From the IMG/VR virus record IMGVR_UViG_3300033074_001674, positions 1-64,000 of that record: a DNA stretch of 64,000 nt, one strand, 5' to 3'. The notes under the pieces were generated by a model. The model worked only from the letters and a program-made list of their open reading frames with translations. It searched no databases and was not told the origin of the DNA. The translations under genes were made by a program, and so were the position numbers. This document shows, one piece after another, positions 12,771 to 40,074 of the stretch. The stretch is from a virus. Taxonomy: Duplodnaviria > Caudoviricetes. Each line of letters starts with the position of its first letter. Within the stretch, counting starts at the first letter, position 1.

Positions 12771-13406
12771 ATGCCGCACATCCTTTTCAAGCCGTCATCA
12801 ATTGATGCCGTAGCCGTGTCTGGCGGACCTGATTCGATGTGCGCAATGCATTTCTTAACTCAGGGAGGCAAATATCCAAAGACAATTCTGCATTTTTTCC
12901 ATGGCACTGAGTTTGGCTCGCTTGCTAGAAAATTAGTCAGAGATTATTGTGAGGAGCTAGGTCTTCCGCTGATTGAAGGAGAAATCGCAGGAGATAAGCC
13001 ATCAGATGAATCTCTTGAAGAGTTTTGGCGCAATCAAAGGATTGCCTTCTTTCAAGCTTGGTCAAAATCCAATAGCGAGAAAACTCAAGATATCACTTTA
13101 ATTGCTAGTGGACATAACCTGGATGATGCAGTAGAGACGTGGCTATTCTCGTGCATGCATGGCCGTCCTGACAAAATCCCAGAAGCAGGGGCGGCGTTGG
13201 TTAGACCCTTCCTCTTATGGAGAAAAGAAGAGATGGGCGAGTACTGTAGAAAACACAACGTGCCATACATAATCGACCCATCAAACGAGGATAGGCGCTT
13301 TATGCGCAGCATTATCAGACACGATATAATGCCGCTAGCCCTACAAGTTAATCCGGGCATCTATACAGTTGTAAAGAAAATGTATGAGCGAAAAATCTAC
13401 ATTTAA
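12771..13406 (+). CDS. tilS: tRNA(Ile)-lysidine synthetase-like PP-loop ATPase (N-terminal domain only)
   Basis: VAVSGGPDS, GHNLDD.VET, RPFL, DPSN, R..IRH. Confidence 0.88.
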   Translation: MPHILFKPSSIDAVAVSGGPDSMCAMHFLTQGGKYPKTILHFFHGTEFGSLARKLVRDYCEELGLPLIEGEIAGDKPSDESLEEFWRNQRIAFFQAWSKSNSEKTQDITLIASGHNLDDAVETWLFSCMHGRPDKIPEAGAALVRPFLLWRKEEMGEYCRKHNVPYIIDPSNEDRRFMRSIIRHDIMPLALQVNPGIYTVVKKMYERKIYI

Positions 13407-13710
13407 TACCTATCTTGAATTAAGGATTATTTCAGCAAACCCAAATGACAATGATAGGATACTTATTAAATGTGGGCACGAAACAACATGGCACAGTGCA
13501 TTTAATTGGCTGGTAGATAATCTGCCTACAACACTTAAGGAAAAAAGTCCACTACTTAAGGATGTGATTACTAATAGGTTTAAAATAGGACTAAATAAAA
13601 CTAATCGAATTTCAGACAGTATTTCTGGGAGGAATGAGGAGAGCTATCAATTTACTCTAGGAGTGTGCGCAGACGGCACAAAAGTTCTATGTAAGGTATG
13701 TAAAGAATGA
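13384..13710 (+). CDS. beta-beta-alpha paralog family member
   Basis: ILIKCGHETTWHSAF..LVDNL. Confidence 0.7.
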   Translation: MSEKSTFNTYLELRIISANPNDNDRILIKCGHETTWHSAFNWLVDNLPTTLKEKSPLLKDVITNRFKIGLNKTNRISDSISGRNEESYQFTLGVCADGTKVLCKVCKE

Positions 13711-14003
13711 CATCTTTATTTGTCAAGATAAATCTTTTAGGCAACAAAGATGAATTTCTAATATTCGAGATTGGCAAAGATACTACGTGGAAAAAGTTTA
13801 TTACATATCTAATATCTTCTATGGAAGAAATATGCAATAAACACAACAAATCTCCAAAATTTAAGCAATGGATAAATGGGCAAAATTTTAGAAATTGGTC
13901 GGTCGAAAAAATATCGACAACATTTGTAGATGGCGTAAAATATTTTAACGATTTTAATAATGGTATTTCTGTAGATATCTTAATTTATAATACTTATGAA
14001 TAA
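13707..14003 (+). CDS. divergent beta-beta-alpha paralog family member
   Basis: LIFEIGKDTTWKKFI. Confidence 0.65.
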   Translation: MTSLFVKINLLGNKDEFLIFEIGKDTTWKKFITYLISSMEEICNKHNKSPKFKQWINGQNFRNWSVEKISTTFVDGVKYFNDFNNGISVDILIYNTYE

Positions 14004-22596: not shown

Positions 22597-23020
22597 CGAG
22601 AATGAGTTAAGAAGGCATATAGATAAACTTAGAAGATTTTCCGCGATTATAAAAGAAGGAAAATCTAATATAAACTATCAAGATAAGTATAAACTCACAA
22701 TACCAAACATGTTGCAGCATGAGGTTAAATTGCCGCTCATGCACATTGTGCTTAGAATGTACGCCATGTTTAGATTGGGAATAGAAGAAGGTATTAAATG
22801 TGCGGGATACTCGGATTCACTGGAAGATACAGTGATAAAATCCCTACTTTCATTAGTAGAGGATTGCTCGAATCAGAAACAAGAGGAAGAGACGCAACAG
22901 GATTCTTCGCCAGAAACGAGCACGGAACTATCGATGACAAACGACCAATCCCCGCCAAAAAATTCATCAGAAGAGCCAAAGTCGAAGGTCGTCTTAGAAA
23001 ATTTGAGCCTAGTGGAGTAA
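22568..23020 (+). CDS. hypothetical protein overlapping the next gene by 223 nt
   Basis: Fills gap 22596-22798; S/T/E-rich tail in alternative frame. Confidence 0.55.
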   Translation: MTLKSTLQRNENELRRHIDKLRRFSAIIKEGKSNINYQDKYKLTIPNMLQHEVKLPLMHIVLRMYAMFRLGIEEGIKCAGYSDSLEDTVIKSLLSLVEDCSNQKQEEETQQDSSPETSTELSMTNDQSPPKNSSEEPKSKVVLENLSLVE

Positions 23021-23718: not shown

Positions 23719-24119
23719 CAGGAGCAAAACTGCTGCTTAGATTAAAGAATAGATTTCCTAAAGAAATAAAAGATATATTCTTTGTCGAGACAGAAGCTAA
23801 TCCGGATGTGCCGACATATGCAATTCAAGTTTTCGAAGCAAATAGCTTCTTAGCACCAAAAACAAATAAAGATGCGTTTAATGCATGGAACAATTCAATT
23901 TATTCATCTAACGGGATATTGAACTCTGCAAGAGTGAGCAGAATTCTTCTCGAACTTCTCTCTATTGAGAGAGGTCTTGTTGATAGAGTTCAGTTCTTAA
24001 TATTCCACAACAACAATATATACAGTCTTAACAAAATAGCTACAGAACATAAGTTTGTCGCGGTGAAAGTCAATAAAATAGCGAGGATTACAAATGGCGG
24101 CAGCAAAATCACCAAGTAA
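23688..24119 (+). CDS. hypothetical protein
   Basis: GAGG RBS, 143 aa. Confidence 0.7.
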   Translation: MCVKTSDLSIAGAKLLLRLKNRFPKEIKDIFFVETEANPDVPTYAIQVFEANSFLAPKTNKDAFNAWNNSIYSSNGILNSARVSRILLELLSIERGLVDRVQFLIFHNNNIYSLNKIATEHKFVAVKVNKIARITNGGSKITK

Positions 24120-25326: not shown

Positions 25327-25334
25327 AGGTTAAA

Positions 25335-26429
25335 ATGTGTGGAATATTTGGATATACTGCTTTTGGCAAAATAGAAAAGCCAGAAGCTCTTCATAGATTA
25401 ATTACACATCTGGCGCTATCTTCTCAAGACAGGGGCACAGACGCGACAGGATTTTCATCCTACAGTTTCAATAAGGAAATTGTAAGAGATAAAATGCCGT
25501 ATAGCGCCGAGCATTTTATTAAGTTGAGCTATAAGTTCGCGTCACTAGAAAGGAATATGCCCAGAACTTTTATAGGACATACAAGAAGAGTTGATAATGC
25601 TCATAGCCCAGCAATCAATAACAACAATCATCCATTTTGTGGAGAGGTATTCGACCTAATACATAATGGTGTGCTATATGATTGGCGAAATAAGGCTAAA
25701 ACATTAGGCCTAGATGTCAGGTCCGGGACAGATAGTGAAGTATATCTAAGATTTCTAGAAAAGAAATTAATTAATCGCGACCAAACTGGCTATGATTCAT
25801 CTTATAATTCACTAGCTGCTGCATTTGGAGATTTCGGTAAGGACCTATCAAATGGGAAATATGCAATTGCCGCGATAGACAAGAGGAATGGCAATTTAAT
25901 CCTGGCAAGGAATGTTAATCCAGTACATTATTTTTCCACTAATTTCTTCGGTGCAAGGGTATTCGTATTCGCTTCAACGTTTGAGATATTAAAGAACGCT
26001 ATTTCTCAAATGGGCGCTGTTTTTACAATGGCGGATGCTGGGACCATAGAGATAATTAAACCTTACGCACTATACACAATAGTCTTTACAGCAGAGCTAT
26101 CCACAGATAACAGATATACAAACATCCTATATAGAGAGTATGCCAGGGGTTACGAAACCACCACGTCAGATACTCCAGCAACATCTTATGGTTCAAACTA
26201 CTACTCATATTACGATATAAACACAGAGATGTTCAAGAGTAATCAAACAGTCTATGCCACACTAGATGGATTCATAAAGATGGAGCTAAAGGAGCTAGAG
26301 GATATCTCGTGGGGAATTACTAAGCTATTTGGAGATTTCGAAATTATAAATGAAGACGATGAGTGGAATAATATCTTCATTAAGTGCGCCGCGAATACAG
26401 CAAATGAAGGGCAAGGATGTGGATATTAA
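25335..26429 (+). CDS. class II (Ntn) glutamine amidotransferase
   Basis: MCGIFG, RGTDATG, GHTR, NNHPF, HNG, TDSE. Confidence 0.92.
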   Translation: MCGIFGYTAFGKIEKPEALHRLITHLALSSQDRGTDATGFSSYSFNKEIVRDKMPYSAEHFIKLSYKFASLERNMPRTFIGHTRRVDNAHSPAINNNNHPFCGEVFDLIHNGVLYDWRNKAKTLGLDVRSGTDSEVYLRFLEKKLINRDQTGYDSSYNSLAAAFGDFGKDLSNGKYAIAAIDKRNGNLILARNVNPVHYFSTNFFGARVFVFASTFEILKNAISQMGAVFTMADAGTIEIIKPYALYTIVFTAELSTDNRYTNILYREYARGYETTTSDTPATSYGSNYYSYYDINTEMFKSNQTVYATLDGFIKMELKELEDISWGITKLFGDFEIINEDDEWNNIFIKCAANTANEGQGCGY

Positions 26430-27406: not shown

Positions 27407-28079
27407 TTGGGCAGGTCTAATTGACGACGATATGATTGTTGATGTGGAAATATCTAAGGATAGAAAAAAGACAGTTTCCGCAGACATAGTTACAAACACC
27501 ACAAATTCAATTGTATTTGATGTAAGCCATAAGACGCCAGAATATTATTCATCTGGAGGATTTAAGTGGCAAAAGGTTGGAAGAAGAATTTTAGTCCCCA
27601 CAAAAGATTCCATTAAAATAAGCGATGCGTCTAAAGACATAGAGGAAAATTACCTAAAACTACTTACTGGAACGCCAGTAGAGCTTAAGGCGATAATACA
27701 TTGTGCGTATAAAAAATTCGTGGCGCAAATACCCTCTGATGGTTCATCATTCGATGATGCAATAGTTCTAAAGAACGTTTTGATTCCAGCAGAGATTAAA
27801 GTAACAATTGGCAAACACAACAATATTTGCCCAATGAAAATGTTAGAGGAATGCACAAGAACAATCATAGATATAAGAAAGTCGAACTTAATTAATTCCG
27901 CGGAAAGGCCAGCATTCCCAATAGTTGAGTATATAGGGATTTGGATTAATTACGACGTTAACCTCGGTCTCTATATGGTAAAACCCCAAATTAGAATGAG
28001 TCCAACAATTATGACCATAAATAGGTACAATAGCTTGGGCGAATTAACTATGTCTAGACACGAAGGAATTACAATTTGA
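27390..28079 (+). CDS. hypothetical protein
   Basis: 229 aa ORF, GGAG RBS. Confidence 0.75.
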   Translation: MSYYNNWAGLIDDDMIVDVEISKDRKKTVSADIVTNTTNSIVFDVSHKTPEYYSSGGFKWQKVGRRILVPTKDSIKISDASKDIEENYLKLLTGTPVELKAIIHCAYKKFVAQIPSDGSSFDDAIVLKNVLIPAEIKVTIGKHNNICPMKMLEECTRTIIDIRKSNLINSAERPAFPIVEYIGIWINYDVNLGLYMVKPQIRMSPTIMTINRYNSLGELTMSRHEGITI

Positions 28080-29008
28080 AATTCGAAGATTTCATAGGCA
28101 ATACACAAGCGGTAGGACTACTTAAATTGTTGTGCGCAGATACAAAAGAGCACAACATGCCATTTCCACACATAGGGGTATTTGGTCCTGCCGGCCACGG
28201 AAAGACTACAATTACCAATATTGTGGCGGCTGAACTAAAAAGAAAGTTCGTTTATATAAATAGTACGGCAGTAAGGAGAGCCGGCCTAATTCGCGGGCTA
28301 ATTACACATCCAGAGAATATGGCAAATGGAGCCATTATATTTATGGATGAAGCCCACCAGTTGCCCAAGCAAATACAAGACAGCTTACTATCCGCTCTTG
28401 AAAAGCCAGCGAAACTAGTAACCTCATTCAAGGACCAGGTATTGTCAGATAATCTGCCTGACCATATAACTTTTGCATTTGCGACCACAGATAAATCTAA
28501 AATGAACAATACTCTACTTTCCAGATTAGAAGAAATAGAGCTAGGAGAGTATACTACTGCAGAGAAGCAACTTATAGCCATAGGAGAATTTGCAAGGCAA
28601 AAAATAGATAATGCCAACCTAGATATGGACGCTGCAGTTGAAATAGGGAGAATATCTAGGTCCGGGCGCCATGTAATTAAGCTTGTGGATAGGGTCGTGA
28701 GACTGGCTCGTGTAATGAAAGTGCAAAAAATAAATGCGGACCTAGTTAAAATGGTCTGTGAAGCCAACGGGGTAGATGGGAATGGCCTCACAAAGGTAGA
28801 TAGAAGGCTCCTGCGATACTTAAATGAGACTGGCCACTGCGGGATAGAAAACCTTGAAGTCTACTTAAATATGCCAAGAGGACAAATAACAAATACAATA
28901 GAACCATGGCTTGTTAGACATAAATTAATTGTAAGGCAAGCATCTGGTCGTGTGATTACTGAAAAGGGCAGGCTTGCACTAAACGGACAAAGGATAGATT
29001 ACGAATGA
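28076..29008 (+). CDS. ruvB: Holliday junction branch-migration AAA+ ATPase RuvB-like
   Basis: FEDFIG, GPAGHGKTT, FMDEAH, FATT, L.SR, GL...DR..L, IEPWL, GRVIT.KG. Confidence 0.88.
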   Translation: MKFEDFIGNTQAVGLLKLLCADTKEHNMPFPHIGVFGPAGHGKTTITNIVAAELKRKFVYINSTAVRRAGLIRGLITHPENMANGAIIFMDEAHQLPKQIQDSLLSALEKPAKLVTSFKDQVLSDNLPDHITFAFATTDKSKMNNTLLSRLEEIELGEYTTAEKQLIAIGEFARQKIDNANLDMDAAVEIGRISRSGRHVIKLVDRVVRLARVMKVQKINADLVKMVCEANGVDGNGLTKVDRRLLRYLNETGHCGIENLEVYLNMPRGQITNTIEPWLVRHKLIVRQASGRVITEKGRLALNGQRIDYE

Positions 29009-29652
29009 GCGATATTATTACAGAGTTTGGAGAAGTGATTAATAATCAAGCTAAATCTATTGGAAGAAAATTCCTTCCTCTAATCAAGTCCCGCGTTGAT
29101 ATGGATGACCTAATTAATGAGGCCGCGCTGGTCGCTTTAGAAATACACAAAAAGTATGACCCCTCGCGGGACCCAGACAAATCCCGCTATATGGGAATAC
29201 AAATAAGGTATGGATTATTGCGATATGTCGCCAGCAACATGTATGACCTCAGCGCACCGTATAGTGCAATGTATACGGCCGACAAAGAGAATAATGAAGA
29301 TTTTCTGCACAATAATAGGGCAGTCAGAATAGTTCCCCCTAATAGAGGAGTAGAAGATGTCCCATACTCAAACAAAATTTCCGCAGATAGTATTGTATTC
29401 GCTAGCGGCTCCCAGCCTCATATAGATAAGTTGGAAAAGGATGAAGATATAGAAATACTGCGACAGGAAATTGCAAAATTAAATAAAGATGAAAGAACGG
29501 TAATTGCTGAGCGATATTTGTCAGAAAGCAAGCGCACAAAAGAAGATGTAGCGCAACAGATTAATGTGAACCAAATAACTGTTGGGATAATTGAAGACAG
29601 GGCAAAAAATAAATTGCGCACAAGAATCAAGGCACGACATGACAAACAGTGA
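29005..29652 (+). CDS. phage sigma-70-family RNA polymerase sigma factor
   Basis: Region 2 DDLINEA...KYDPSR; region 4 L...ERTVI..RY...T..DVA......V..IE.RA..KLR. Confidence 0.85.
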   Translation: MSDIITEFGEVINNQAKSIGRKFLPLIKSRVDMDDLINEAALVALEIHKKYDPSRDPDKSRYMGIQIRYGLLRYVASNMYDLSAPYSAMYTADKENNEDFLHNNRAVRIVPPNRGVEDVPYSNKISADSIVFASGSQPHIDKLEKDEDIEILRQEIAKLNKDERTVIAERYLSESKRTKEDVAQQINVNQITVGIIEDRAKNKLRTRIKARHDKQ

Positions 29653-29935
29653 TGTGATTCATAGTTTAGAGAACATTTTTATTGACACAAGTGTGCTTTT
29701 TTCAATTTCCGAGAGATGTCTAAAAACCGCACAGCTAACATTAGACTGGCTATATAAACAATCTGACATTGATTTTACAGAAAAAGAAAGAGATATTTTA
29801 CTCCGGGTTGTCGCAGCGCTAAATATTGATTTAGCAGAGATGCGCAGAGACGTAGAAAGCATACGTTTCTATAACAACTATTTAGACCGGAGTATTAGAA
29901 ATGGCGAAACCAAATCAAAGACAACACAACTCTAG
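29639..29935 (+). CDS. hypothetical protein
   Basis: Overlapping coupled ORF. Confidence 0.65.
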   Translation: MTNSDVIHSLENIFIDTSVLFSISERCLKTAQLTLDWLYKQSDIDFTEKERDILLRVVAALNIDLAEMRRDVESIRFYNNYLDRSIRNGETKSKTTQL

Positions 29936-30305
29936 AACTAGAGGAAATAACTCAAGAAGAAAACCAACAATATGGGGAGAGATAACAAGAACAATTGGCA
30001 AGGGCGCGAATAAGCGGGAAATTAAAGAGCAAGTAAAGATTCCGCACGATAAGTTGTGGGACCCAGATTTGCTTGACCAAGAGAATCTTCCATTCCCATA
30101 TGACCTTCTTAAACTAGATTGGATGGAAGAGCTAATACATTATTCCGTAGATAACAAGAGAAAGCTCTCTAAAACATACAACGAACAAACTGGCGTATAT
30201 ACTTACGCGGTGTGTGATAAGTACGGAAAGCCTGTTATTTCCGTTTCAACAACGCGAAACATAATGTATAATCCACGCGCTAAGCGTTTTAGAGGCAAGA
30301 AATGA
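29901..30305 (+). CDS. hypothetical basic protein
   Basis: GGAG RBS, 134 aa. Confidence 0.75.
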   Translation: MAKPNQRQHNSRTRGNNSRRKPTIWGEITRTIGKGANKREIKEQVKIPHDKLWDPDLLDQENLPFPYDLLKLDWMEELIHYSVDNKRKLSKTYNEQTGVYTYAVCDKYGKPVISVSTTRNIMYNPRAKRFRGKK

Positions 30306-30691
30306 ACTGGCAAGAACTTCTGTGGCAGGTATTGGCTTTTCTTCTACCGATATTGTCTACTGTATTGAGCCTTGTAATTGCAGCACTTCTTAAGAAGTGG
30401 CTGGACAAACTCAATATAGAGCGCTCGGCCAAGATAGATGACATGATTGACAAGTATGTAAAGATTGGCGTTGATTACGTTGACAAGCTTGTTGCCACAA
30501 AAGCAAAGCTAAATCAGTCTGCACCTGCGTCACAAGATAAGTTGAATATGGCAGTTTCAACTGTAATGGCAGAACTTGAACAAAGTGGGATTAAGGGAGT
30601 CGCCGAATCCCTAGTCGTGGCCAGAATCGAGGCCGCGCTCGGAGCCCGCGACTCGAGTAAGGAGTTAGATAAAAGTACACAAGGAGTTTAA
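30302..30691 (+). CDS. putative holin (LL-H-like)
   Basis: Single N-terminal TM, then K...A...L...GI...IEAA. Confidence 0.7.
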   Translation: MNWQELLWQVLAFLLPILSTVLSLVIAALLKKWLDKLNIERSAKIDDMIDKYVKIGVDYVDKLVATKAKLNQSAPASQDKLNMAVSTVMAELEQSGIKGVAESLVVARIEAALGARDSSKELDKSTQGV

Positions 30692-30734
30692 CGAAGCACT
30701 AAAAAATATAAACGTCAGGAAACTGACAGAGGTC

Positions 30735-30998
30735 GTGATTCTACTAGCCAAGAGCAAATTTGACCTCAATAAAAAGCTCGACAATGACATGTTCAATCAT
30801 GTTGTTTATATCTGTAATCAAATATTGCAGATGGCTAAGAGAGATGGTATTTCGTGGGAAATGGCCGAAAAGGCAGGAAAAATGCTTTGGAGGCTATATT
30901 TGGTTATTGGAGCTTATAATGGAAAGCGTCAAGATGTGACATTGAGTCGCATACTTTCCATAGTTGGTGAATTTCATTCTACATTCACAGGAGTGTAA
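30735..30998 (+). CDS. hypothetical protein
   Basis: GAGG RBS, GTG start. Confidence 0.65.
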   Translation: MILLAKSKFDLNKKLDNDMFNHVVYICNQILQMAKRDGISWEMAEKAGKMLWRLYLVIGAYNGKRQDVTLSRILSIVGEFHSTFTGV

Positions 30999-30999
30999 A

Positions 31000-31596
31000 A
31001 TGGGTGTTACTGTTCTAGATTTGCGTCGTGATGGTCCTGCTTTTGTCGCTGGTCTCCAGATTGGAGACAGCATCTATCAGCTAGGTGTGCAGGCGGTTAA
31101 CACGCCTGCCGATTTGGCCAAGGCTCTTTCGATGGTTTCGGCCGAGGGCACTACCCCCGTCCGATACTACCGGGCCGGCATTGCGCGAAGCGGGATGCTG
31201 TATGGAGTTGGGAGAACTGCTAACGGTAAGACCAAGCGACTCGGGATTGTGACCGACCCCAAGTTGGTCGGGTCATTCTTCAAGAGAGGCGTTGCGCCTA
31301 AGGCACAGCCTGCTGCGGCAGGAGATGGCCTTGGTGTCCCGGTTCTTCGCGTCGATTTGGGCTCTCCTCTAGCTACCCTTGTTCGGGCTGGCGACGTGCT
31401 ACTGTCGATTAACGGCAGAGCGCTGAGCAAGTCCGAGGATGTGGCTGCTGCGGTCAAGGCCACTGCCGCTGAGGCGCTTTCGAGCGTTGCTTTCCGGCGT
31501 CAGGGCGTCCGTCGAACTGGCAGTGCCAGATTCGGGCGGAGAGCTGACGGCACTGTCAAGCGGCTTGGAATCGTGACTCGACCTGAAGCGCTTTAG
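31000..31596 (+). CDS. stand-alone tandem PDZ-domain protein
   Basis: GPAFVAGLQIGDSI and GSPL...RAGDVLLSING; each repeat ends KRLGIVT; AGGAG RBS. Confidence 0.85.
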   Translation: MGVTVLDLRRDGPAFVAGLQIGDSIYQLGVQAVNTPADLAKALSMVSAEGTTPVRYYRAGIARSGMLYGVGRTANGKTKRLGIVTDPKLVGSFFKRGVAPKAQPAAAGDGLGVPVLRVDLGSPLATLVRAGDVLLSINGRALSKSEDVAAAVKATAAEALSSVAFRRQGVRRTGSARFGRRADGTVKRLGIVTRPEAL

Positions 31597-31624
31597 ATGG
31601 CGGGCTCTGCGGAGCCACCACTTA

Positions 31625-31757
31625 TGCCTTGGTAGTTAGGATTGTGAACAGATTAATCTGTTCTTTAGCAAACAACGTGGCCCCGTGTTGTATCCTAAAA
31701 CGGGGCGCCTCTCCAAGCTAAATGGAGTGGCGGGCCGACCCCAGAGACAGGGCGGCA
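31625..31757 (+). ncRNA. candidate structured RNA with pseudoknot
   Basis: TTAGGAT/ATCCTAA, GAACAGA/TCTGTTC, CCCCGT/ACGGGG, CGCC/GGCG, CTCCA/TGGAG, TGCC/GGCA. Confidence 0.6.
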
Positions 31758-31783
31758 CACTCTTTAAAATAGGTGTCGCAATC

Positions 31784-31868
31784 GCACAGGTAGCTCAATG
31801 TAGAGTGTTTGGGTTAATTCTTAATATGAAACCTTTTCGGGTTGCTGGTTCAAGTCCAGCCCTGTGCA
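31784..31868 (+). ncRNA. tRNA-like RNA with aberrant anticodon/variable region
   Basis: GCACAGG/CCTGTGC, GCTC/GAGT D-stem, GCTGG-TTCAAGT-CCAGC; no canonical anticodon arm. Confidence 0.78.
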
Positions 31869-31881
31869 TAAGACAATTTAT

Positions 31882-31964
31882 TCCCAGGTATTCCGTAATT
31901 GGTAGCGGGCCGGACTGTTAATCCGGGGCGAACAGCACTGTAGGTTCGAGTCCTACCCTGGGAG
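31882..31964 (+). tRNA. tRNA-Asn (GTT), atypical
   Basis: TCCCAGG/CCTGGGA, CCGGA-CTGTTAA-TCCGG, T-loop TTCGAGT; long variable region. Confidence 0.88.
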
Positions 31965-31967
31965 ATT

Positions 31968-32252
31968 ATGCATTACGAAATCAAATTATCTAATGAGAAT
32001 GATTTTTGCTTAGTGGCGTGCGGTCCAAACGCTAGGCTTTTAAGCGTACTATCACTGGCACATGCTAGTCTATCCGATGATAGAAGCATCAAATCTTCTA
32101 TCTATAAAAGAATAAATTATAATGGTGGATTAAATAGCATGACAATATGTGAAATGCGCGAAATGGTCAGACCAAAAATTAAGCTGCCAACTACCAGAGA
32201 AATCCTTATAATGGAAATTTCAGAAGTAGCCGATGTACCATCTAATATTTAA
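31968..32252 (+). CDS. beta-beta-alpha paralog family member
   Basis: CLVACGPNARLLSVL..A...L. Confidence 0.78.
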   Translation: MHYEIKLSNENDFCLVACGPNARLLSVLSLAHASLSDDRSIKSSIYKRINYNGGLNSMTICEMREMVRPKIKLPTTREILIMEISEVADVPSNI

Positions 32253-32526
32253 ATTAGAGCCAGGCGAAGAATCTTGTGCGCTAGCACTAGCCAATCCAAG
32301 AAAAGTGACTTTAAAATCTGTGCTAAATGAGGCCATAGAAGGTCTAAAGGCTTTTGGCGACAGAGAAGCTCTATTAAATAGTATAACTGAGACACAAAAA
32401 TTATTTGATGCATGGAGATATCTATCTATCAATGAAATTATATACAGATTTGGGAGTAGTGACAAAATTGGTTTTAAATTGGAAAATGCTACTACATTAA
32501 GAATTATATTAAAATGTATAAAATAA
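32233..32526 (+). CDS. beta-beta-alpha paralog family member
   Basis: CALAL...KVTLKSVLNEAIEGL...GDREALL. Confidence 0.78.
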   Translation: MYHLIFKLEPGEESCALALANPRKVTLKSVLNEAIEGLKAFGDREALLNSITETQKLFDAWRYLSINEIIYRFGSSDKIGFKLENATTLRIILKCIK

Positions 32527-32774
32527 CACTAGAATGTAGATGTGACAAAAAGTGCGGCACATGCACACTTTATTGTGGCCCAAATGCCAAACTGAAAGAT
32601 GTACTACAGGTTGCCGCAAATAACCTTGAGGCAGATATTAAACGCGAACATCTAACATTTAGAATCAAAGATAGGATACTGTTCGGAGGGCATTGGAACA
32701 AAAGTACAATAAGTAGCCTTGTTGCAGACATGCTTCCCGTTAATGGAATTTATATTTATAGGGAGAAACTATAA
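32514..32774 (+). CDS. beta-beta-alpha paralog family member
   Basis: CTLYCGPNAKLKDVLQVAANNL. Confidence 0.78.
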   Translation: MYKITLECRCDKKCGTCTLYCGPNAKLKDVLQVAANNLEADIKREHLTFRIKDRILFGGHWNKSTISSLVADMLPVNGIYIYREKL

Positions 32775-33262
32775 TGCCGCTTTTTATTAAGTGCTCTCTT
32801 TGTGAGCAGTTTCATCAAAAACACAATGAGCCGCTTAGAAGGTGCGGCAAATTGGTATTTATTCCTGCCTACGGATGGATTGAATGGAGCGCGGATGCTG
32901 CGGTCAATATTAATTTTGGGAGAGCCATGAATACAAGAGCACTTTGTAGATATTGTAGAAGGTATCACACGGCATTTGAGGATTGTGTGCCGGGATATCA
33001 AGTAGCTGGCGTGCCTAAAACAATAGGAAATAAAGAAACAGAAAAATTATTGCCTGTGCGCACAGATAAAGATTCCAGCAATACGACCACGACCGGCGCG
33101 GAAAATCCAATTAGAGTAGAGCGGGTATATATCGGTGGCGCTAAGCAAGAGCAGCCTGAGCCCACTCCGATTAAACAAATAGAGCCACGCCAAACAACGA
33201 AGGATGTTGTTAAGGAAATATTAAAGAGGATTGAGGCGGCCAAATGTCTAGAAGCAACTTAG
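32774..33262 (+). CDS. zinc-finger protein
   Basis: CSLC...H...C and CRYC...H...C. Confidence 0.75.
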   Translation: MPLFIKCSLCEQFHQKHNEPLRRCGKLVFIPAYGWIEWSADAAVNINFGRAMNTRALCRYCRRYHTAFEDCVPGYQVAGVPKTIGNKETEKLLPVRTDKDSSNTTTTGAENPIRVERVYIGGAKQEQPEPTPIKQIEPRQTTKDVVKEILKRIEAAKCLEAT

Positions 33263-33441
33263 ACATCTATAGAGAATCCAAAGATAGAATGAGGAGAGCT
33301 AAAAATCTATTCATGACCACGCACGAATGGAAGATAGCTAGGGGATTGGCAGAGCCTAAAGACCATTCTTGGATTTGGAAGATATTACTATGCGCCGCCG
33401 CATTTATATTGGCGGCGAACATGTGGAGATTATCACCTTAA
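33244..33441 (+). CDS. small membrane protein
   Basis: C-terminal hydrophobic segment. Confidence 0.65.
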   Translation: MSRSNLDIYRESKDRMRRAKNLFMTTHEWKIARGLAEPKDHSWIWKILLCAAAFILAANMWRLSP

Positions 33442-33657
33442 ATGAGCCACTTAAAAGTACTATTATGGTTAGCAGATAGTGAGTGCGAGCTCGCTTGTGG
33501 AGAAAATACGAGGGTTAGAGATGTTTTAAGAACTGCGGCTAATAATACGTCAGGAGATATTAGAGCTGCGCTTTATGATGTTGCTGAGGTTTTGCCGAAC
33601 ATGTTCATTAAAGAATGGATTGATGTTTCAAAGGACATGATTCTTATGGCGATGTAG
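33442..33657 (+). CDS. beta-beta-alpha paralog family member (short, possibly frameshifted)
   Basis: CELACGENTRVRDVLRTAANN. Confidence 0.72.
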   Translation: MSHLKVLLWLADSECELACGENTRVRDVLRTAANNTSGDIRAALYDVAEVLPNMFIKEWIDVSKDMILMAM

Positions 33658-33878
33658 AGTTTTCCGTAATCGTAACTACTCAGAATCCGGATGACGGCTC
33701 ATTTGAAATTGAAATGGGAAAATACAAAAAGAAACTAAAAGAATGGAACGATTGGAACAAAGAACACGCAGAGGAAATAGCTGCGCTTAAAAAAGAACGG
33801 GCTGCGAAGAAAAAAGAAAATAAAGCACTAATACGTGAACTTCAAAAAGAAATAGAGAAATTAAAACGAGAACAATGA
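33624..33878 (+). pseudogene. start-less coding frame (frameshift continuation or gene remnant)
   Basis: GHDSYGDVEFSVIVTTQ...KYKKKLKEW...IEKLKREQ*; first ATG only at 33714. Confidence 0.5.
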
Positions 33879-34330
33879 CACGACTATTATTATTGTTGTT
33901 CATGCTAATCGTCCCCGGCTGCTCCTGGATTCAGCCATCATTTATTAGCGAAAACAGTTATAGTGTAGCATCAGTAGATTCAGGAGAGAATCTCGGTGGA
34001 CATTTTGATGAAGATGACAATTGGGTTCCTGATAATCCAGATATATCTCTGACATATAAAATACCCGATATATCTAGCGGCATTATATTCGATGCAAGCG
34101 ATTTCAAAGTCACTCCAACTCTCCAGGTGGAGTTATTTGAATTTGACACACATATCCCATACGTTAATAGGCTCGTGGTAGATTTTGGCGTAGGGTATCA
34201 ACGGACATTTATTTATGTTGGCAAACTGTGGACTTCAATATTTGAGATAACAACTGGTGGTTTCGTTGGATGGGACTGGGAAGAAAAAGACCTGTCCTAT
34301 GGCATAGGGGCAACAATAATAAGGTTCTAA
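33875..34330 (+). CDS. putative lipoprotein with beta-barrel-like C-terminus
   Basis: Signal ...IVPGC; amphipathic strands; ends YGIGATIIRF. Confidence 0.7.
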   Translation: MTRLLLLLFMLIVPGCSWIQPSFISENSYSVASVDSGENLGGHFDEDDNWVPDNPDISLTYKIPDISSGIIFDASDFKVTPTLQVELFEFDTHIPYVNRLVVDFGVGYQRTFIYVGKLWTSIFEITTGGFVGWDWEEKDLSYGIGATIIRF

Positions 34331-34331
34331 T

Positions 34332-35201
34332 ATGAGCTATATCCTTAACAAAAATGGTCTTCAAAAAGCAAAGACTGCAAATGGCTTAAATGGCGCTCAT
34401 GCCGACGCATATCGCATCAAATATGATTTTCTTGGCGATGATATGGTAAAGTTGGAATCTTTTGAAAACCAAGCTTGTTTTTCGCAAATGCCATCACAAA
34501 TATTAAAGCACAGAGATAAAGTCAAATATATTAGGCTTTATCATAGAATGCCATTGCCAACGCCAAATTGGCCAGACATGGAACAGGATGTTATATGGTG
34601 GCTCAGCAAGGCCCTTGAGGAAGGAGGACTAATCCTATCAACAAAAGACACAACTGGATGGGATATATATACGGATGGACTCACAATCCCATTAAGCCAT
34701 CCGCTTGCCACAATAGATAAAGTGTATATCGCCGGCACAATACTGCGGATGCCAAATGAATTTAGCGCCATGGTAAGGACCACTATACATTTAGTCAAAA
34801 ATTGCTCGGTCCCGTTCTGGCCTGCTTTTTATTACACGCATGGACAATTTAATGTGGGGACTGGCCATTCATTCTTAAGCTTGGGCACATCTCCTTACTA
34901 TAAAGGCTATAGATTATCTTTGGATGGAGTAAAAGAATTCCATTCATACATGAAGGATAGAAAAGTAAAGATGTCCCGCATAGAAGATATGATTAATAAA
35001 GCAGCGCCTAAACAATACAATGCATGGGACTGGCATGGCACTGCCAATATTGTCACGCCAACAACCAAAAGTGCGGCAGTTAGCGATGCCATCAAAACAA
35101 TTTACCCGCCAATACGAGACTATTTGAACGAAATTGACCCAGGCAAGTTAGACTCTATCTATAAAGAAATTCAATCTCTAGACCATACAAAAGAGGCGTA
35201 A
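34332..35201 (+). CDS. hypothetical protein
   Basis: 289 aa ORF directly upstream of the C26 peptidase. Confidence 0.8.
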   Translation: MSYILNKNGLQKAKTANGLNGAHADAYRIKYDFLGDDMVKLESFENQACFSQMPSQILKHRDKVKYIRLYHRMPLPTPNWPDMEQDVIWWLSKALEEGGLILSTKDTTGWDIYTDGLTIPLSHPLATIDKVYIAGTILRMPNEFSAMVRTTIHLVKNCSVPFWPAFYYTHGQFNVGTGHSFLSLGTSPYYKGYRLSLDGVKEFHSYMKDRKVKMSRIEDMINKAAPKQYNAWDWHGTANIVTPTTKSAAVSDAIKTIYPPIRDYLNEIDPGKLDSIYKEIQSLDHTKEA

Positions 35202-35888
35202 ATGTACTGTTTAGTTGTAGGTGGTGCAATGGGATATTTTATTCCAGCCAACCATTTGGGATTAATCCCGACTGATGACCTATCTATTCTTAACACGCCA
35301 GAAAAAGTGAAGTTAGCCATTTTTACAGGCGGTGAGGATGTTGACCCATCTCTGTACGGCCACGTCATGGATAGAACAACAGGCTCTAATATAAGAAGAG
35401 ACAAGTATGAAGTTGGTGCATTCCACGCATTAAAGGAATTTAATATACCAAAGGTGGGAATATGTAGGGGCGCACAGTTTTTGTGCGTGATGGCTGGCGG
35501 GTCATTAATCCAAGATGTAACAGGTCATGGGTCGAACCATTACCTTGTATTTAGGGATAAAGATGGCGCGATGAAAAAGTCGCCAGAGAAGGTTACATCC
35601 ACACATCACCAAATGCAATATCCATGGGATTTGCCGGAGGATAATTTTAAGGTTTTGGCCGGCTCTCCTAGCCCAATCTCTAATCATTATGTGTGGAATA
35701 ATCGCAAGTATTATTCAAATCAATTGGAGATTCCTCAGCAGTTCTGGGTAGAACCGGATGTTGTGCATTATCCGAAAATTAATGCGCTGGGCATACAATA
35801 TCATCCAGAGTGGATGCCCGAGAATTCGTGGGGGATGATATACGCAAGAGGCTTAATAAGTAGTCTTGTGAATGGCGATGACATATAG
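35202..35888 (+). CDS. class I glutamine amidotransferase-like, peptidase C26 family
   Basis: FTGGEDVDP.LYG, RD..E, GICRGAQ, STHHQ, QYHPE. Confidence 0.92.
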   Translation: MYCLVVGGAMGYFIPANHLGLIPTDDLSILNTPEKVKLAIFTGGEDVDPSLYGHVMDRTTGSNIRRDKYEVGAFHALKEFNIPKVGICRGAQFLCVMAGGSLIQDVTGHGSNHYLVFRDKDGAMKKSPEKVTSTHHQMQYPWDLPEDNFKVLAGSPSPISNHYVWNNRKYYSNQLEIPQQFWVEPDVVHYPKINALGIQYHPEWMPENSWGMIYARGLISSLVNGDDI

Positions 35889-36171
35889 AGTTAATATAAC
35901 CTATGCGATGCAATCATGCGAGTTGCTTTGTGGAGAAAATGCAAAACTACTAAAAATATTTAGTGTTGCATATCGAAACTTAACATCCATAGCTATGGAT
36001 AGAAATAGGAGCTCCCTAGCAAGCAAAATTTATACTCTAATATTAGCGTTTGAAAGGTCAGCTGAAACTATTTCTTATATAGATAAGGAATGGACAAAAA
36101 AATACGACATGGTGATTCTTAGAGAAGGATACCTGGGACAAGGAGTTTACTTGACATGGGAATACGCATGA
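35872..36171 (+). CDS. beta-beta-alpha paralog family member
   Basis: CELLCGENAKLLKIFSVAYRNL. Confidence 0.78.
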   Translation: MAMTYRVNITYAMQSCELLCGENAKLLKIFSVAYRNLTSIAMDRNRSSLASKIYTLILAFERSAETISYIDKEWTKKYDMVILREGYLGQGVYLTWEYA

Positions 36172-36653
36172 AATATGCTCCTATTAATATTGTGAGAGTT
36201 AATAGAGATAGTACGCTAGGAAAACTGGCTTTAAATGTGATGGACTCTCATAATAATGGTAGAATAACGCAAGAATCACTAGACATGTTCCGCGAAGATT
36301 ATTCTCTCCTGGAAGACTTTCAATATCACACAGTGATTATGGCCGCAATCTTTAAGGGTGAGGTCATAGGAATATCTGCTGGAGTTGTTGATGGGTTCGA
36401 AATGCTTAATGGCATTACAGTGGTACATCAAAAATACAGGAGATTAGGTGTTGGTTTCAAGCTTATGATGGCAAAAGCTAAAGAAATAAGTAACTATTTC
36501 CCAAATGTAAAAATCGCGACAAAGGTCGCAGCCAACAATATCCCATCGATGAGGTCACTAATTAAGGCTAACTTTAAGGCGACAGAAATCACAACACACA
36601 GAAAAAACAACGGGTCGCTGGTAGACTGTTTTACATTTACGTGGCCCAAATGA
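36156..36653 (+). CDS. GNAT acetyltransferase
   Basis: VVHQKYRRLGVG, V...N.PS...L.K..F. Confidence 0.85.
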   Translation: MGIRMKYAPINIVRVNRDSTLGKLALNVMDSHNNGRITQESLDMFREDYSLLEDFQYHTVIMAAIFKGEVIGISAGVVDGFEMLNGITVVHQKYRRLGVGFKLMMAKAKEISNYFPNVKIATKVAANNIPSMRSLIKANFKATEITTHRKNNGSLVDCFTFTWPK

Positions 36654-36967
36654 TTTGTAGACTATATGTAGATGGCTCTAACACACAGAAGTGTTACTTG
36701 CGTATCAGAGATGATAAAATCGAATATGTGACATACAATGATATTTTAAAGGTCGCTTACGACAATTTAAGATGCGACCCACTAAGGTGGAATTTTGCTT
36801 GCGCAATAAATGATGAGATTGGTAAAAGATGGACAAAAGGAATACCTTTTAAGTTTGGATATAAAACGGCGCCTATCGCACTTTTCGACGCGTACATTAA
36901 CCCAGATTCCCCACATATGAATAGAATAGTATTGGCTCAATATAATGGTGAAATTAATCATCGCTAA
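36641..36967 (+). CDS. beta-beta-alpha paralog family member
   Basis: CYL.I.DD....VTYNDILKVAYDNL. Confidence 0.72.
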   Translation: MAQMICRLYVDGSNTQKCYLRIRDDKIEYVTYNDILKVAYDNLRCDPLRWNFACAINDEIGKRWTKGIPFKFGYKTAPIALFDAYINPDSPHMNRIVLAQYNGEINHR

Positions 36968-37220
36968 TGAGGAGTGTGAACTTGCGCTTAAAGATGACGC
37001 GCTAAACAAAATAACATATCTAATGATATTAGATGAGGCAGAGAGAGGATTAATACATACAGGAGATAGACAGAGCTTATTGAAAGCGATTAAATATTGC
37101 AAATCAAGGCCTTGGGCAAATGACAGAACGCTTATGGCAATAAAAGAAACGGAAGATTTAGTTCTTTATGGTGGATATGTGTTGACGTTACAACGAGGGC
37201 CGGAAATAGTATCGAACTGA
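36945..37220 (+). CDS. beta-beta-alpha paralog family member
   Basis: CELAL.DD...KITYLMILDEAERGL...GDRQSLL. Confidence 0.75.
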   Translation: MVKLIIANEECELALKDDALNKITYLMILDEAERGLIHTGDRQSLLKAIKYCKSRPWANDRTLMAIKETEDLVLYGGYVLTLQRGPEIVSN

Positions 37221-37567
37221 TAAGTAAGAGCAAAACTAGCAGGCCGTGGTTGAGCGCTGGCCACGTTAAAAAGCGTTCAAACTTAAAGTGCCAAGACCAC
37301 TTCAAAGTCTTATCGGGGTGGACGGACTCGTGCCGCTCGCCTCAGCGCTCTAAGCGCCGCTGCCTAATTAGCGTTATTTATTAGGGTGGCTCCTCAGCGC
37401 ACAATCTGAGGAGTTACAGCACATCGAGTCGAGAAGCTGTGACTATTTAGACTTGCGTTGCGCATTAAGAGGTAAATGCGATATTTCGTCAACTAGAAAA
37501 GTTGTCTAAGCCTGTAGAAAGTTTGCAATTTTTATCAGTGACCCGGGGGCAGTACCCGGCCGGTCCA
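37197..37567 (+). ncRNA. ssrA: tmRNA (one-piece); tag AKTTSKSYRGGRTRAARLSALSAAA at 37290-37367
   Basis: GGGCCGG/CCGGTCC-A with G3:U70, ACTGATAA/TTATCAGT helix, PK1 (CGTGGTT/GGCCACG, GAGCGCT/AGCGTTC), GCC resume codon, tag ends AAA*. Confidence 0.93.
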
Positions 37568-37588
37568 TTTAATTATTGGAAGAATATT

Positions 37589-37867
37589 ATGGAATTCCTA
37601 GAGTTTAAATTGTGGACTAGCACCATACCACAAGAGACGTGCATAATTAGGTGTGGGCACAAAGCATCTTTCGATAAAGTGATTTTAACCGCGCTTGAGA
37701 ATACCCCTCACGAAAAACTAAAAAAAGAATTAAAGATTGTGTGCGAAAATTATTGCAACAGAGGATATTCAGTTAAAGGATATTGGGATGTGTCACAAAG
37801 ACAGGGGAGAGAATACCGAAGCATACTAAGGGAAATAGAGATACTGTGCAGAATAGTTAGGGATTAA
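37589..37867 (+). CDS. beta-beta-alpha paralog family member
   Basis: CIIRCGHKASFDKVILTALEN; ATG 37589 lies after the tmRNA. Confidence 0.75.
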   Translation: MEFLEFKLWTSTIPQETCIIRCGHKASFDKVILTALENTPHEKLKKELKIVCENYCNRGYSVKGYWDVSQRQGREYRSILREIEILCRIVRD

Positions 37868-37868
37868 C

Positions 37869-38162
37869 GTGGGTAAATATTTTAAAATTACTCTTAGTTG
37901 TAGGGACCTAAATGAAGAATGCTTAATTCATGCAGGGCCTAATGCCACTATGGCAAAAGCCGTGAATTCTACTTTAGATTTTATAAAAGATAAATGTCCT
38001 CGTCTTGCAATTATCCTTAAATCATATAAGTTACAAGGCAAGAGATTTTATAATCATAAATTATGCGATGCCTATGGTATAGTGTGTAGATACGGCCCAT
38101 ATGAATCACATTTTGACTATAACCAACCACAAGTTAGCTACACTATAGAAATGCGAAGCTAA
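37869..38162 (+). CDS. beta-beta-alpha paralog family member
   Basis: CLIHAGPNATMAKAV. Confidence 0.75.
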   Translation: MGKYFKITLSCRDLNEECLIHAGPNATMAKAVNSTLDFIKDKCPRLAIILKSYKLQGKRFYNHKLCDAYGIVCRYGPYESHFDYNQPQVSYTIEMRS

Positions 38163-38258
38163 CTTAATTACATTACAATTACTAGCGCCCGCGCAGCGGC
38201 AACGAAATAACATTAGAGCACAATGACGTGCGGTCTGCAAGCTAAAAGGAGCTGCGCT

Positions 38259-38624
38259 ATGAATAGAGGAGATATTTTTGAGTTTAACGGCGATAGATTT
38301 GTTGCTCGCGACACTAGCGGGACCACAGTTGTGGCGTCAAAGCTAGGTCTCGACAAGAATGGAGTTGAGCATCCACGAGTTGGAAAGCCTCGCACATTCA
38401 AGAATCTTGACGCGAAGGTTGTTGGTTTTATGAAGTTAGTTGATAGGAGAAAGCCCGGCACTGGACACACTTCATTTGTGGAGTCACCAACAGATGAGGA
38501 TGAAGCATCTGGCGAATCTCCTGAGGAGGCACCTGCAGAGGATTCATGGGAAGAGATACAGCGCAAGAAGAAGGTTGTAGAAAATCTTATGAAGCTGACA
38601 GGCGATGGGCCAAGCGAGTGGTAG
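38259..38624 (+). CDS. hypothetical protein with acidic tail
   Basis: AGGAG RBS before ATG 38259. Confidence 0.75.
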   Translation: MNRGDIFEFNGDRFVARDTSGTTVVASKLGLDKNGVEHPRVGKPRTFKNLDAKVVGFMKLVDRRKPGTGHTSFVESPTDEDEASGESPEEAPAEDSWEEIQRKKKVVENLMKLTGDGPSEW

Positions 38625-38686
38625 TGTAGGGCTGCATGGGACGGGTCCGGCATACCCTTATCAGGTGTCGGGAATAATGGAGATTT

Positions 38687-39007
38687 ATGAATTATTTTGT
38701 TGTAAAAATCTCAGATATAAACGGAGATTCCTGCGAGATTAAATGCGGACCATCTGCCACTTTGCGAAGCATACTTAAAAACGCTGCTGACAATCTAGAT
38801 GCGGACAGGAGTTTAAGTAAGGCGATTATAAGCGTGTGTGGATGCGATTTTGATTCCTGGAACCGACAAATTCGTAATATTGGAAAACATTTCATTATGG
38901 CTAGCGGCGACAATTTAATTATGTTCAAAATAACAGAGATGGTAGAATTTACATCAATGAAGTGGGATAATCATTTTAACATGACATGGAGCAGTGTTCG
39001 TCAATGA
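38687..39007 (+). CDS. beta-beta-alpha paralog family member
   Basis: CEIKCGPSATLRSILKNAADNL. Confidence 0.78.
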   Translation: MNYFVVKISDINGDSCEIKCGPSATLRSILKNAADNLDADRSLSKAIISVCGCDFDSWNRQIRNIGKHFIMASGDNLIMFKITEMVEFTSMKWDNHFNMTWSSVRQ

Positions 39008-39672
39008 AAAAACTACTCCTAATATTAATGTTTGTGATTTCTGGCTGCTCAACAACTAGAAAAACAGACGCGCTAGTAAGCAAGTTTTTATTACCAGTCA
39101 ATGTTGTTGCTGCATATTTTTCCAGCGTAGCTATACATGAGGCTGGCCATGCATGTGGCGGATGTTTGACAGGAGCATACAAATCAGACATTGATGTTGT
39201 TCCAGTCAAAAAGCAAGGCAAGTGGCACCTTGGCTATACTACTAATTATTACAGGCCAGGCACATTATCAAGGTCTGATGAATATATAACGAATTCGTTT
39301 GGGCCCGCTGCCCAGTATCTAGGACACCTTGGATGTAGAGCACTTCTTGAAACAGATAGTGTGCCAAGATTACTCCAACCATTTCTAGGCTGGTTAGACT
39401 TGTTTAATGTGATAGGATATTACTCTCACGTTTTTCAAGGTCTAATTAGAATAGACGAACAATCAGACCTTGTTAAATTAGACCCGTGGGTCTCGTGGGT
39501 AATGCTCGGAGGAGGTCTAGCAATAGATATTCTTGATATAATCTTCATTGATGATGACTTTTCAAAGCGCTTTAAGGTTCTGTTCGGCGAGGATTTTTAT
39601 GAGGCAAAAGAGGACAGACAAATAAGTCTTATCACTACGCCAGGCTTCTTCGGAATAAGATTGGAGTGGTAA
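39004..39672 (+). CDS. lipoprotein/membrane HExxH metallopeptidase-like (M50-like)
   Basis: Lipobox ISGC; HEAGH; GP...; ends FFGIRLEW. Confidence 0.72.
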   Translation: MKKLLLILMFVISGCSTTRKTDALVSKFLLPVNVVAAYFSSVAIHEAGHACGGCLTGAYKSDIDVVPVKKQGKWHLGYTTNYYRPGTLSRSDEYITNSFGPAAQYLGHLGCRALLETDSVPRLLQPFLGWLDLFNVIGYYSHVFQGLIRIDEQSDLVKLDPWVSWVMLGGGLAIDILDIIFIDDDFSKRFKVLFGEDFYEAKEDRQISLITTPGFFGIRLEW

Positions 39673-40074
39673 ATGAATTTGAATCATATAGTTCAAATTG
39701 AGGTTGGAGATAGTGGCGGGGATGGACATGGCAAACATGAAACATTCACATATAGCTGCACTCACGATTCATTTGAAGTAAAACAGGCCTTTAAAAAAGG
39801 GACTGATATATTAGGCTTTGATATTACCAAATATTGTGATGCTTATGAAGATAATAGTATACCGCAAGATGTGTACGAAAAGCTAGTAGAGCTTAATGCT
39901 GTTCCAGAATGGCTAATTAGCGATGTTGATGAATTTGAAGAAGAGCCATACGTGGACGCTGAGACATACGCTAACATTTACATGCTTACGGCACAAAAGG
40001 GGCTGCCAGAACTTCGTTATACTATGAGAAGAAACCCGGCAATCAAGGCCGGAGGATACGGATTATTTAGTTAA
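39673..40074 (+). CDS. hypothetical phage protein
   Basis: GD.GGDGHGK...C..YED...GGYGLF. Confidence 0.78.
   Translation: MNLNHIVQIEVGDSGGDGHGKHETFTYSCTHDSFEVKQAFKKGTDILGFDITKYCDAYEDNSIPQDVYEKLVELNAVPEWLISDVDEFEEEPYVDAETYANIYMLTAQKGLPELRYTMRRNPAIKAGGYGLFS

Follow-up and report, generated by a model that had tools for sequence, protein, structure and literature searches.

A lineage-restricted family of small, rapidly changing paralogous proteins in a 165,893-bp phage contig

What are the ten small, mutually similar proteins that a phage encodes between positions 31968 and 39007 of the stretch of DNA analysed here, and what might they do for it? That stretch, which we call the window, is the first 64 kb (64,000 nucleotides) of one 165,893-bp contig, a linear IMG/VR virus record (IMGVR_UViG_3300033074_001674; Duplodnaviria, Caudoviricetes) with a completeness of ~74% according to CheckV. 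An earlier note on the window had described ten open reading frames (ORFs) of this region as paralogs sharing two N-terminal strands, a conserved Cys, a turn and a helix. It had likened this pattern to the start of ubiquitin-like beta-grasp folds, and had proposed that such a diversified array encodes anti-defence or host-interaction effectors, or else substrates or decoys for conjugation enzymes. We ask here whether the ORFs are genes of one family, how they change between related phages, which fold they may adopt and which functions are plausible. Megablast and tblastn searches of 50,697 deposited phage genomes found no close relative of this large uncultivated phage.

Ten paralogs and their rapid divergence

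All ten ORFs are present on the plus strand and are referred to below as members a to j in order of position (Table 1). They are genuine, mutually homologous genes that form a single lineage-restricted family of paralogs. Family profile hidden Markov models (HMMs) were searched against all 821 ORFs of at least 45 amino acids (aa) in the 165,893-bp genome. With an HMM built from seven core members, the five next-best matches were b (E 1e-3), the ORF at 13384 (1.3e-3), f (4.6e-3), g (0.13) and the ORF at 13707 (0.9); these are exactly other candidates of the earlier note, which places the family signal well above chance. In leave-one-out searches, nine of the ten left-out members appeared directly after the nine training sequences and before every non-member (E 9e-12 to 1.5e-3). 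The weakest was i, at rank 11 (E 0.067), which nevertheless has pairwise matches to a, c and j (E ~1e-3 to 6e-3, in a small database). Pairwise BLAST ties the ten together chiefly through their first 45 residues; for example, the nearest paralog of b is g, with 43% identity over 47 aa. One Cys is invariant in all 20 aligned paralogs and orthologs, as had been claimed for the members, and one Ala of the first helix is nearly invariant. The CG(P/E/H)x(A/T) turn was likewise found in a, c, d, e, h and j, and the longer loop that replaces it in b, f and g; in i the turn reads AG instead of CG.

Two start codons deserve comment. That of member f is more likely the ATG at 36650 than the GTG at 36641 chosen earlier, because the orthologs begin MIC(K/R)LYV. 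For member h, the ATG at 37589 is the correct start, because the longer ORF beginning with TTG at 37502 overlaps the transfer-messenger RNA (tmRNA) gene. The members are placed between conserved genes, tRNA genes and the tmRNA gene, much as the earlier note described, and form one triplet, three singles and two pairs. The only DNA repeat among them, 24 nt long, lies in the part of two members that encodes CEL(A/L)CGEN. This makes a duplication cassette at the DNA level or a recent gene conversion unlikely; otherwise no repeat or cassette accompanies the copies, and the duplications are old. The family consists of small alpha/beta proteins that look soluble, with isoelectric points (pI) from 4.7 to 9.1, a spread that rules out DNA mimicry or any uniform charge. 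Their C-termini all differ (for example ...VPSNI, ...KCIK, ...REKL, ...LMAM and ...WEYA) and vary between orthologs in both sequence and length; none ends in Gly, and hence none in Gly-Gly, as had been noted.

How far does the family reach? Searches of Pfam, PHROGs, NCBIfam and the defence-family profiles of PADLOC returned no family match: the best hits (E 0.06-0.3) were to scattered unrelated families, each hit by at most two members. The family profile likewise matched no PDB sequence (best E 0.32). Besides the window's proteins themselves, a word-indexed search of 5.8 billion clusters recovered just five proteins, which came from two sequencing runs. An exhaustive profile search of 1.84 billion protein representatives added one real relative, P0019; a second candidate from that search, P0015 (408 aa, six "stretches"), was discarded as a spurious, low-complexity tandem-repeat protein. 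Judged by these sequence searches, the family appears restricted to one phage lineage plus a more distant contig. The lineage is represented by contigs L001 to L004, syntenic fragments of two near relatives. The more distant contig, L005, carries P0019, and its orthologs of two conserved window genes, coding for proteins of 228 and 133 aa, are 60% and 53% identical to those of the window at the protein level. No CG-type member was found in the still more distant carriers of the 228-aa gene, L006, L007, L008 and L009.

Between these phages, copy number and position differ. Within 2.4 kb, L005 encodes four members; two of these, between its orthologs for the 228-aa and 133-aa proteins, have no counterpart at that place in the window. 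In the gene table of the relative from SRR13425446, a 36.6-kb contig, the genes for a glutamine amidotransferase (GATase) and a GNAT-like protein that flank member e in the window are adjacent, with no small gene at the position of e. Copies have thus been gained, lost, replaced or moved between related phages.

Divergence was quantified from Nei-Gojobori counts of nonsynonymous (dN) and synonymous (dS) change in codon alignments to the near relatives; nine family genes were set against 11 neighbouring genes by Mann-Whitney test. The median dN/dS was 0.59 for the family and 0.07 for the neighbours (p 2e-4), and the ranges of the two groups do not overlap. Median dN was 0.155 against 0.019 (p 4e-4), whereas dS did not differ (0.251 against 0.413, p 0.76). 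Amino-acid identity over the pairs was 31-99% in the family and mostly 94-99% in the neighbours, with three genes at 86-90%. At similar synonymous divergence, then, amino-acid changes build up in the family about eight times as fast as in the genes around it. Since dS is alike in the two groups, recombination from distant lineages is not the source of the excess divergence. Two L001 alleles, those of c and d (48% and 31% identical, dS >1.4), are exceptions and look like replacements; the genes that flank c are 85-90% identical. Together with the turnover of copies, the dN/dS contrast bears out the description of the array as diversified.

The nine pairs pooled gave a dN/dS of 0.56, which is below 1 (p 1e-6), showing that the ORFs are coding and constrained, under weak purifying selection. 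Constraint is uneven along the proteins: dN/dS was 0.45 in the first 45 residues and 0.64 in the remainder, with a nonsynonymous rate in the first part half that of the second (p 9e-7). The L002 ortholog of j is 70% identical, with its changes concentrated beyond residue 45. The protein of i is identical to its L002 ortholog, the codon alignment holding no nonsynonymous and one synonymous change. Separately, the region 28076-40074 of the window shows a mosaic of synonymous divergence from L001-L004: dS is ~1.0 in the GNAT-like gene, ~0.6 in the RuvB-like, sigma-like and 162-aa genes, and 0.07-0.3 in adjacent genes. This mosaic fits frequent recombination among these phages.

The earlier note had also listed five weaker members. 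These were compared with the family profile by hhalign, and seven alignments of other small proteins of the region served as controls (P 0.23-0.98). The ORF at 13384 aligns over its full length and in register (Table 1), and was the top non-member in nine of the ten leave-one-out searches and second in the tenth (E 0.003-0.68); on this sequence evidence it is probably a remote family member. That at 13707 may be another, tied in mainly through 13384. Contig L006 encodes two relatives of this TTW subtype, one of which, outside the training set, was matched by the HMM at E 1.7e-5. The remaining three are unsupported, with P 0.24 for 10782 and 11052 and P 0.87 for 16744, and 13707 shows a weak link to 10782/11052 (P 5e-3) over just 16 columns. 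These two, 10782 and 11052, lie side by side and share 41% identity over 41 aa and a common GPTY(K/R)xP...(T/C)xxF..LV..DL motif, with orthologs (P0026, P0028) in related samples. They make up a small family of their own, paralogs of each other only and not demonstrably tied to the CG family.

The conserved motif and the predicted fold

The most conserved part of the family is the motif C-x-L-x-C-G-(P/E)-N-A...L..VL..A..NL, and a structural model was used to interpret it. An AlphaFold2 model of member j, based on a 20-sequence family alignment, had a mean predicted local confidence (pLDDT) of 79.5 and a predicted template-modelling score (pTM) of 0.69. It consists of strands 2-10 and 14-20, helices 26-36 and 42-51, and strands 68-73, 76-86 and 98-103, which is the strand-strand-turn-helix pattern with second helix and terminal strand that had been read from the sequence. 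On this model the motif would span the second strand, a tight turn and the first helix, with G-(P/E)-N-A likely forming the turn and the helix cap. Along the second strand, positions i, i+2 and i+4 are taken in alternation by the invariant Cys, a conserved hydrophobic residue and the second Cys; the long-loop members have Leu, Ile or Ala in place of the second Cys. This spacing and these replacements indicate that the side chains face the core, against the helix that bears the conserved Ala. We infer that the invariant Cys and the Ala are core-packing residues and that the motif probably nucleates folding and serves neither catalysis nor metal binding nor conjugation. An iron-sulphur or zinc site is ruled out, given a single invariant Cys and extra cysteines that are not kept in orthologs.

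Is the fold the beta-grasp that the strand-strand-turn-helix start calls to mind? The core of that fold runs in the order N-terminal hairpin S1-S2, helix, S3, S4, S5 (Burroughs et al. 2007, PMC1949818), and the element order of the j model fits it, with an extra helical insert before S3. When the model was compared by VIA-align with 48,161 solved chains, the best match was MM3350 (2i1s; Z 7.0, root-mean-square deviation 3.6 A, 96 of 106 residues aligned), and ranks 4-50 were mostly ubiquitin-like domains (Z 3.8-4.9). The ESM Atlas's own model of j gave a similar ranking by template-modelling (TM) score: nearest was a cluster of PF07929, the Pfam family of MM3350 (TM 0.64), followed by ubiquitin, Rad60-SLD, RnfH and TUG (TM 0.43-0.51). 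For member f, the top 50 matches of a low-confidence model were again mostly ubiquitin-like domains (Z 3.2-4.2).

Several results weigh against this assignment. All structural match scores lie in the range common for unmatched models: the guidance for VIA-align is Z of at least 8 for confidence, and the best value here, 7.0, is within that range. Foldseek found nothing at E <1e-3 in the PDB or BFVD. The AlphaFold2 model of f is poor (pLDDT 60.6), although it keeps the same element order through the fourth strand, and the Atlas model of b (pLDDT 0.61) has no beta-grasp neighbours. On balance, the modelled fold is probably beta-grasp-like (ubiquitin-like) with a helical insert. The likeness proposed earlier thus gains moderate, though not decisive, support from the element order and from rankings dominated by ubiquitin-like domains, and the models stop short of showing a fold common to all ten members.

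Genes around the family

Transcription in this part of the genome is on the plus strand, from base 1 to a GC-skew switch at ~46,000, and the block so defined is non-structural, with many small genes, tRNA genes and the tmRNA gene. The features that bear on the family are collected in Table 1. Around the family genes, sigma-70 promoters, terminators and sigma-54 sites did not exceed their frequency in shuffled sequence.

Table 1. Members of the family, candidate members and neighbouring features in the window. Scores are leave-one-out E values for members a to j, hhalign P values for candidate members, and Rfam bits for RNA genes.
Feature	Coordinates	Strand	Description	Score	Comparison with relatives
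Member a	31968..32252	+	94 aa, CGPNA type; opens triplet, right after two tRNA-like genes	E 1.7e-10	L001 ortholog 73% identical, dN/dS 0.89; L004 ortholog 99% identical
Member b	32233..32526	+	97 aa, long-loop subtype (C-A-L-A-L-ANPRKVT); overlaps end of a	E 2.9e-7	dN/dS 0.57 vs L001
Member c	32514..32774	+	86 aa, CGPNA type, Cys-rich hairpin	E 2.8e-11	dS 1.43 vs L001
Member d	33442..33657	+	71 aa, CGEN type, shortest copy	E 1.7e-7	L004 ortholog's C-terminus longer and different
Member e	35872..36171	+	99 aa, CGEN type; between Peptidase_C26-type GATase and GNAT-like gene	E 1.3e-9	dN/dS 0.72-0.76
Member f	36650..36967	+	105 aa, long-loop subtype	E 1.5e-3	dN/dS 0.56-0.58
Member g	36945..37220	+	91 aa, long-loop subtype; directly upstream of tmRNA gene	E 3.5e-5	dN/dS 0.59-0.67
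Member h	37589..37867	+	92 aa, CGHKA type; directly downstream of tmRNA gene	E 4.9e-5	dN/dS 0.66
Member i	37869..38162	+	97 aa, GTG start, AGPNA type; weakest of the ten in sequence	E 0.067	
Member j	38687..39007	+	106 aa, CGPSA type; modelled representative	E 9e-12	
Probable remote member	13384..13710	+	108 aa, ILIKCGHETTW type; 88 columns aligned	P 2e-4	
Possible remote member	13707..14003	+	98 aa; P 1.8e-3 to 13384	P 0.025	
Separate small-family pair	10782-11051, 11052-11324	+			
tRNA-like pair	31784-31965		directly 5' of member a		
tRNA-like gene	31784-31868	+	abnormal two-base anticodon 'aa' (ARAGORN); Rfam tRNA	43.7 bits	L001 9817-9901; L004 3988-4072
tmRNA gene	37197-37570	+	Rfam RF00023, full-length (model 1-374); within the array; uncalled by ARAGORN	77.7 bits	L002 3298-3671; L003 3302-3675
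COOH-NH2 ligase, phiEco32-type	18960-19826	+			
Class-II GATase, three copies	20317-21354, 22798-23718, 25335-26429	+			
Amidoligase_2	24094-25326	+			
Peptidase_C26-type GATase	35202-35888	+			
GNAT-like gene	36156-36653	+			
133-aa gene	38223-38624	+	GC-rich; second half acidic, Glu/Asp/Ser-rich; among family members		L002 ortholog near-identical, 1 nonsynonymous change, dN/dS 0.05
228-aa protein	38986-39672	+	lipoprotein-like N-terminus (LILMFVISGCS), HEAGH motif; weak Peptidase_M50B match		

Two kinds of neighbour matter for what follows. The first are the RNA genes: the tRNA-like gene is kept in both relatives and the tmRNA gene is also present in two related phage contigs. In the window, the tRNA-like gene is adjacent to the tRNA-Asn gene; in L004 the two are separated by ~530 bp with two small ORFs (75 and 83 aa). 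The second is the cluster of ligase and amidotransferase genes at 18960-26429, which, with the later GATase and GNAT-like genes, is a candidate peptide- or metabolite-ligation system.

Relatives of the 228-aa protein fall in 24 clusters, one of them on 29 contigs up to 938 kb, a far wider spread than that of the phage lineage; a relative-locus search with this protein found none in IMG/VR or JGI metagenomes. One carrier, L008 (a 266-kb JGI contig, of jumbo-phage size), encodes a ThiF/E1-like protein at 4757-5473, ~4.5 kb upstream of its 228-aa gene. The 133-aa gene matched no Pfam family, and a 146-aa antisense ORF that lies over it is probably spurious.

Possible functions and comparison with known systems

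The scaffold is constant and the remainder variable, amino-acid change is fast, copies turn over and the location is non-structural, a combination that fits diversified binding proteins. The reading we favour, tentatively, is that the family may provide such diversified binding modules for host takeover or counter-defence, in line with the effector role suggested before. Each paralog would be a small binding module, with the variable C-terminal half set on the constant scaffold; through this half it would recognise a host (or phage) partner of its own as the phage takes over the host or counters its defences, and an arms race would account for the speed of amino-acid change and for the gain and loss of copies. 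Three points tell against it. No member matches a known anti-defence or takeover protein in the Pfam, PHROG and PADLOC searches; no region has a dN/dS above 1, so that positive selection is not separable from relaxed constraint; and dN/dS values of 0.3-0.9 fit relaxed constraint as well as they fit diversifying selection.

These last points lead directly to an explanation that we consider unlikely but that survives best among the others, namely that relaxed constraint acts on duplicates that now do little or nothing, accessory genes that can be spared and are drifting towards loss. It would agree with a dN/dS of up to 0.89 in one pair, with no site class shown above 1, with the confinement of the family to a tiny lineage and with the drift of C-termini in length. 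However, none of the ten frames is broken, here or in the near relatives, over a dS of 0.1-0.4, and indels keep the frame; pooled dN/dS is significantly below 1 and the N-terminal module is selectively conserved; and the family has been retained in L005, whose conserved genes share just 53-60% identity with those of the window. If the proteins are dispensable after all, the array is an ordinary lineage-specific expansion.

A role as small nucleic-acid-binding regulators is quite improbable. In this case the proteins would, for instance, bind RNA and act with the nearby genes for tRNA, tRNA-like RNA and tmRNA, or else modulate transcription. Members do flank the tRNA-like pair and the tmRNA gene, RNA genes that are kept in relatives, and a role in RNA metabolism is known for some basal beta-grasp domains (IF3-N, TGS; PMC1949818). 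Yet the pI range leaves no common basic character, there are no conserved polar or basic residues, most copies do not adjoin an RNA gene, and proteins that read conserved RNAs do not usually change so fast in amino-acid sequence.

Strongly doubtful, too, is the idea that these are ubiquitin-fold proteins of a conjugation or peptide-ligation system, serving as acceptors or substrates of the phage amidoligase, COOH-NH2 ligase, GATase and GNAT enzymes or as non-conjugatable decoys that jam host ubiquitin-like immune pathways. The models are beta-grasp-like, and the same plus-strand block codes for all of these enzymes, including the class-II and Peptidase_C26-type GATases. But no member has a Gly-Gly or any other conserved C-terminus, and those of orthologs differ in length. 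ThiF/E1 (PF00899) and Prok-JAB (PF14464) gave no match at E <=1 in the 165,893-bp record, itself only ~74% complete, while controls matched 14 and 11 of 14 genomes, respectively. The lack of a C-terminal Gly-Gly and of an E1 or JAB gene in the record argues against conjugated modifiers. Besides the core Cys and Ala there is no conserved surface residue that might act as an acceptor, and linkage to the ligation genes is loose, as the GATase and GNAT-like genes of the SRR13425446 relative adjoin without a family member. The earlier proposal of substrates or decoys for conjugation enzymes thus finds no positive support. A bolder version has the array as non-conjugatable ubiquitin-fold mimics, each plugging or misleading a different host E1/E2- or deubiquitinase-type enzyme, or decorated by the phage amidoligase, GATase or GNAT as new protein tags. 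We regard it as very improbable; were it true, the phage would encode a ubiquitin-fold counter-defence repertoire without described precedent.

Homing endonuclease genes are scattered between conserved genes in T4-like phages, and the strand-strand-helix N-terminus and scattered copies would suit small beta-beta-alpha-metal (His-Me/HNH-type) endonucleases inserted between conserved genes, but this identity is rejected, being effectively refuted by an alignment without catalytic residues (no conserved His, Asn, Asp or metal-ligand set, just one Cys and one Ala conserved in 20-24 sequences), by Pfam and PHROG searches without a hit to HNH or any other nuclease family, and by a length of 71-108 aa that leaves no space for a DNA-binding domain.

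The tentative reading as diversified binding modules gives the family its wider interest. Many-copy, fast-evolving, high-turnover small genes in large phages are among the best candidates for direct host contact, and this family is a clean example, with ten copies in 7 kb, an eight-fold amino-acid excess at equal synonymous divergence and a constant N-terminal scaffold. If both the beta-grasp-like fold and a binding role are true, it would add a new small scaffold to phage host-interaction proteins and offer ten natural variants for mapping specificity.

How does the family compare with known systems? The top-scoring structural match is MM3350, of the PRiA4_ORF3 family (PF07929), the best match by two routes, one through the AlphaFold2 model and VIA-align and the other through the ESM Atlas model. 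In sequence the two are unlike: PF07929 was not matched by the ten members at E <=1 (hmmscan) or by the six-frame translation of the whole record at E <=10, and the 2i1s chain has 181 residues against 71-108 in the family. The literature on MM3350 and PF07929 held nothing on function that we could find. Ubiquitin-like beta-grasp domains (ubiquitin, SUMO, Rad60-SLD, UBX, RA/RBD, FERM F1, MoaD) share the order strand-strand-helix...strand-strand-strand and fill most of ranks 4-50 for two family models. They differ in that the family has an extra helix between the main helix and the third strand, and the comparison yields Z of just 3.2-4.9, no Foldseek match and no detectable sequence similarity. 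Relative to conjugated modifiers (ubiquitin, SUMO, the ThiS/MoaD type and bacterial ubiquitin-like proteins), the family is without a C-terminal Gly or Gly-Gly and without an E1, E2 or JAB partner.

A comparison of another kind is with gene repertoires. Large phages and large DNA viruses carry expanded families of small accessory or early genes, such as host-takeover and counter-defence sets, that grow and shrink. No member of the present family matches any described anti-defence or takeover protein in the profile searches above. By analogy with what is generally known of them, however, it resembles them in its many small divergent copies, its place in a non-structural block, its fast change and its variable copy number and position. 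It is a previously undescribed protein family, and a lineage-specific expansion of small phage accessory proteins of a familiar kind.

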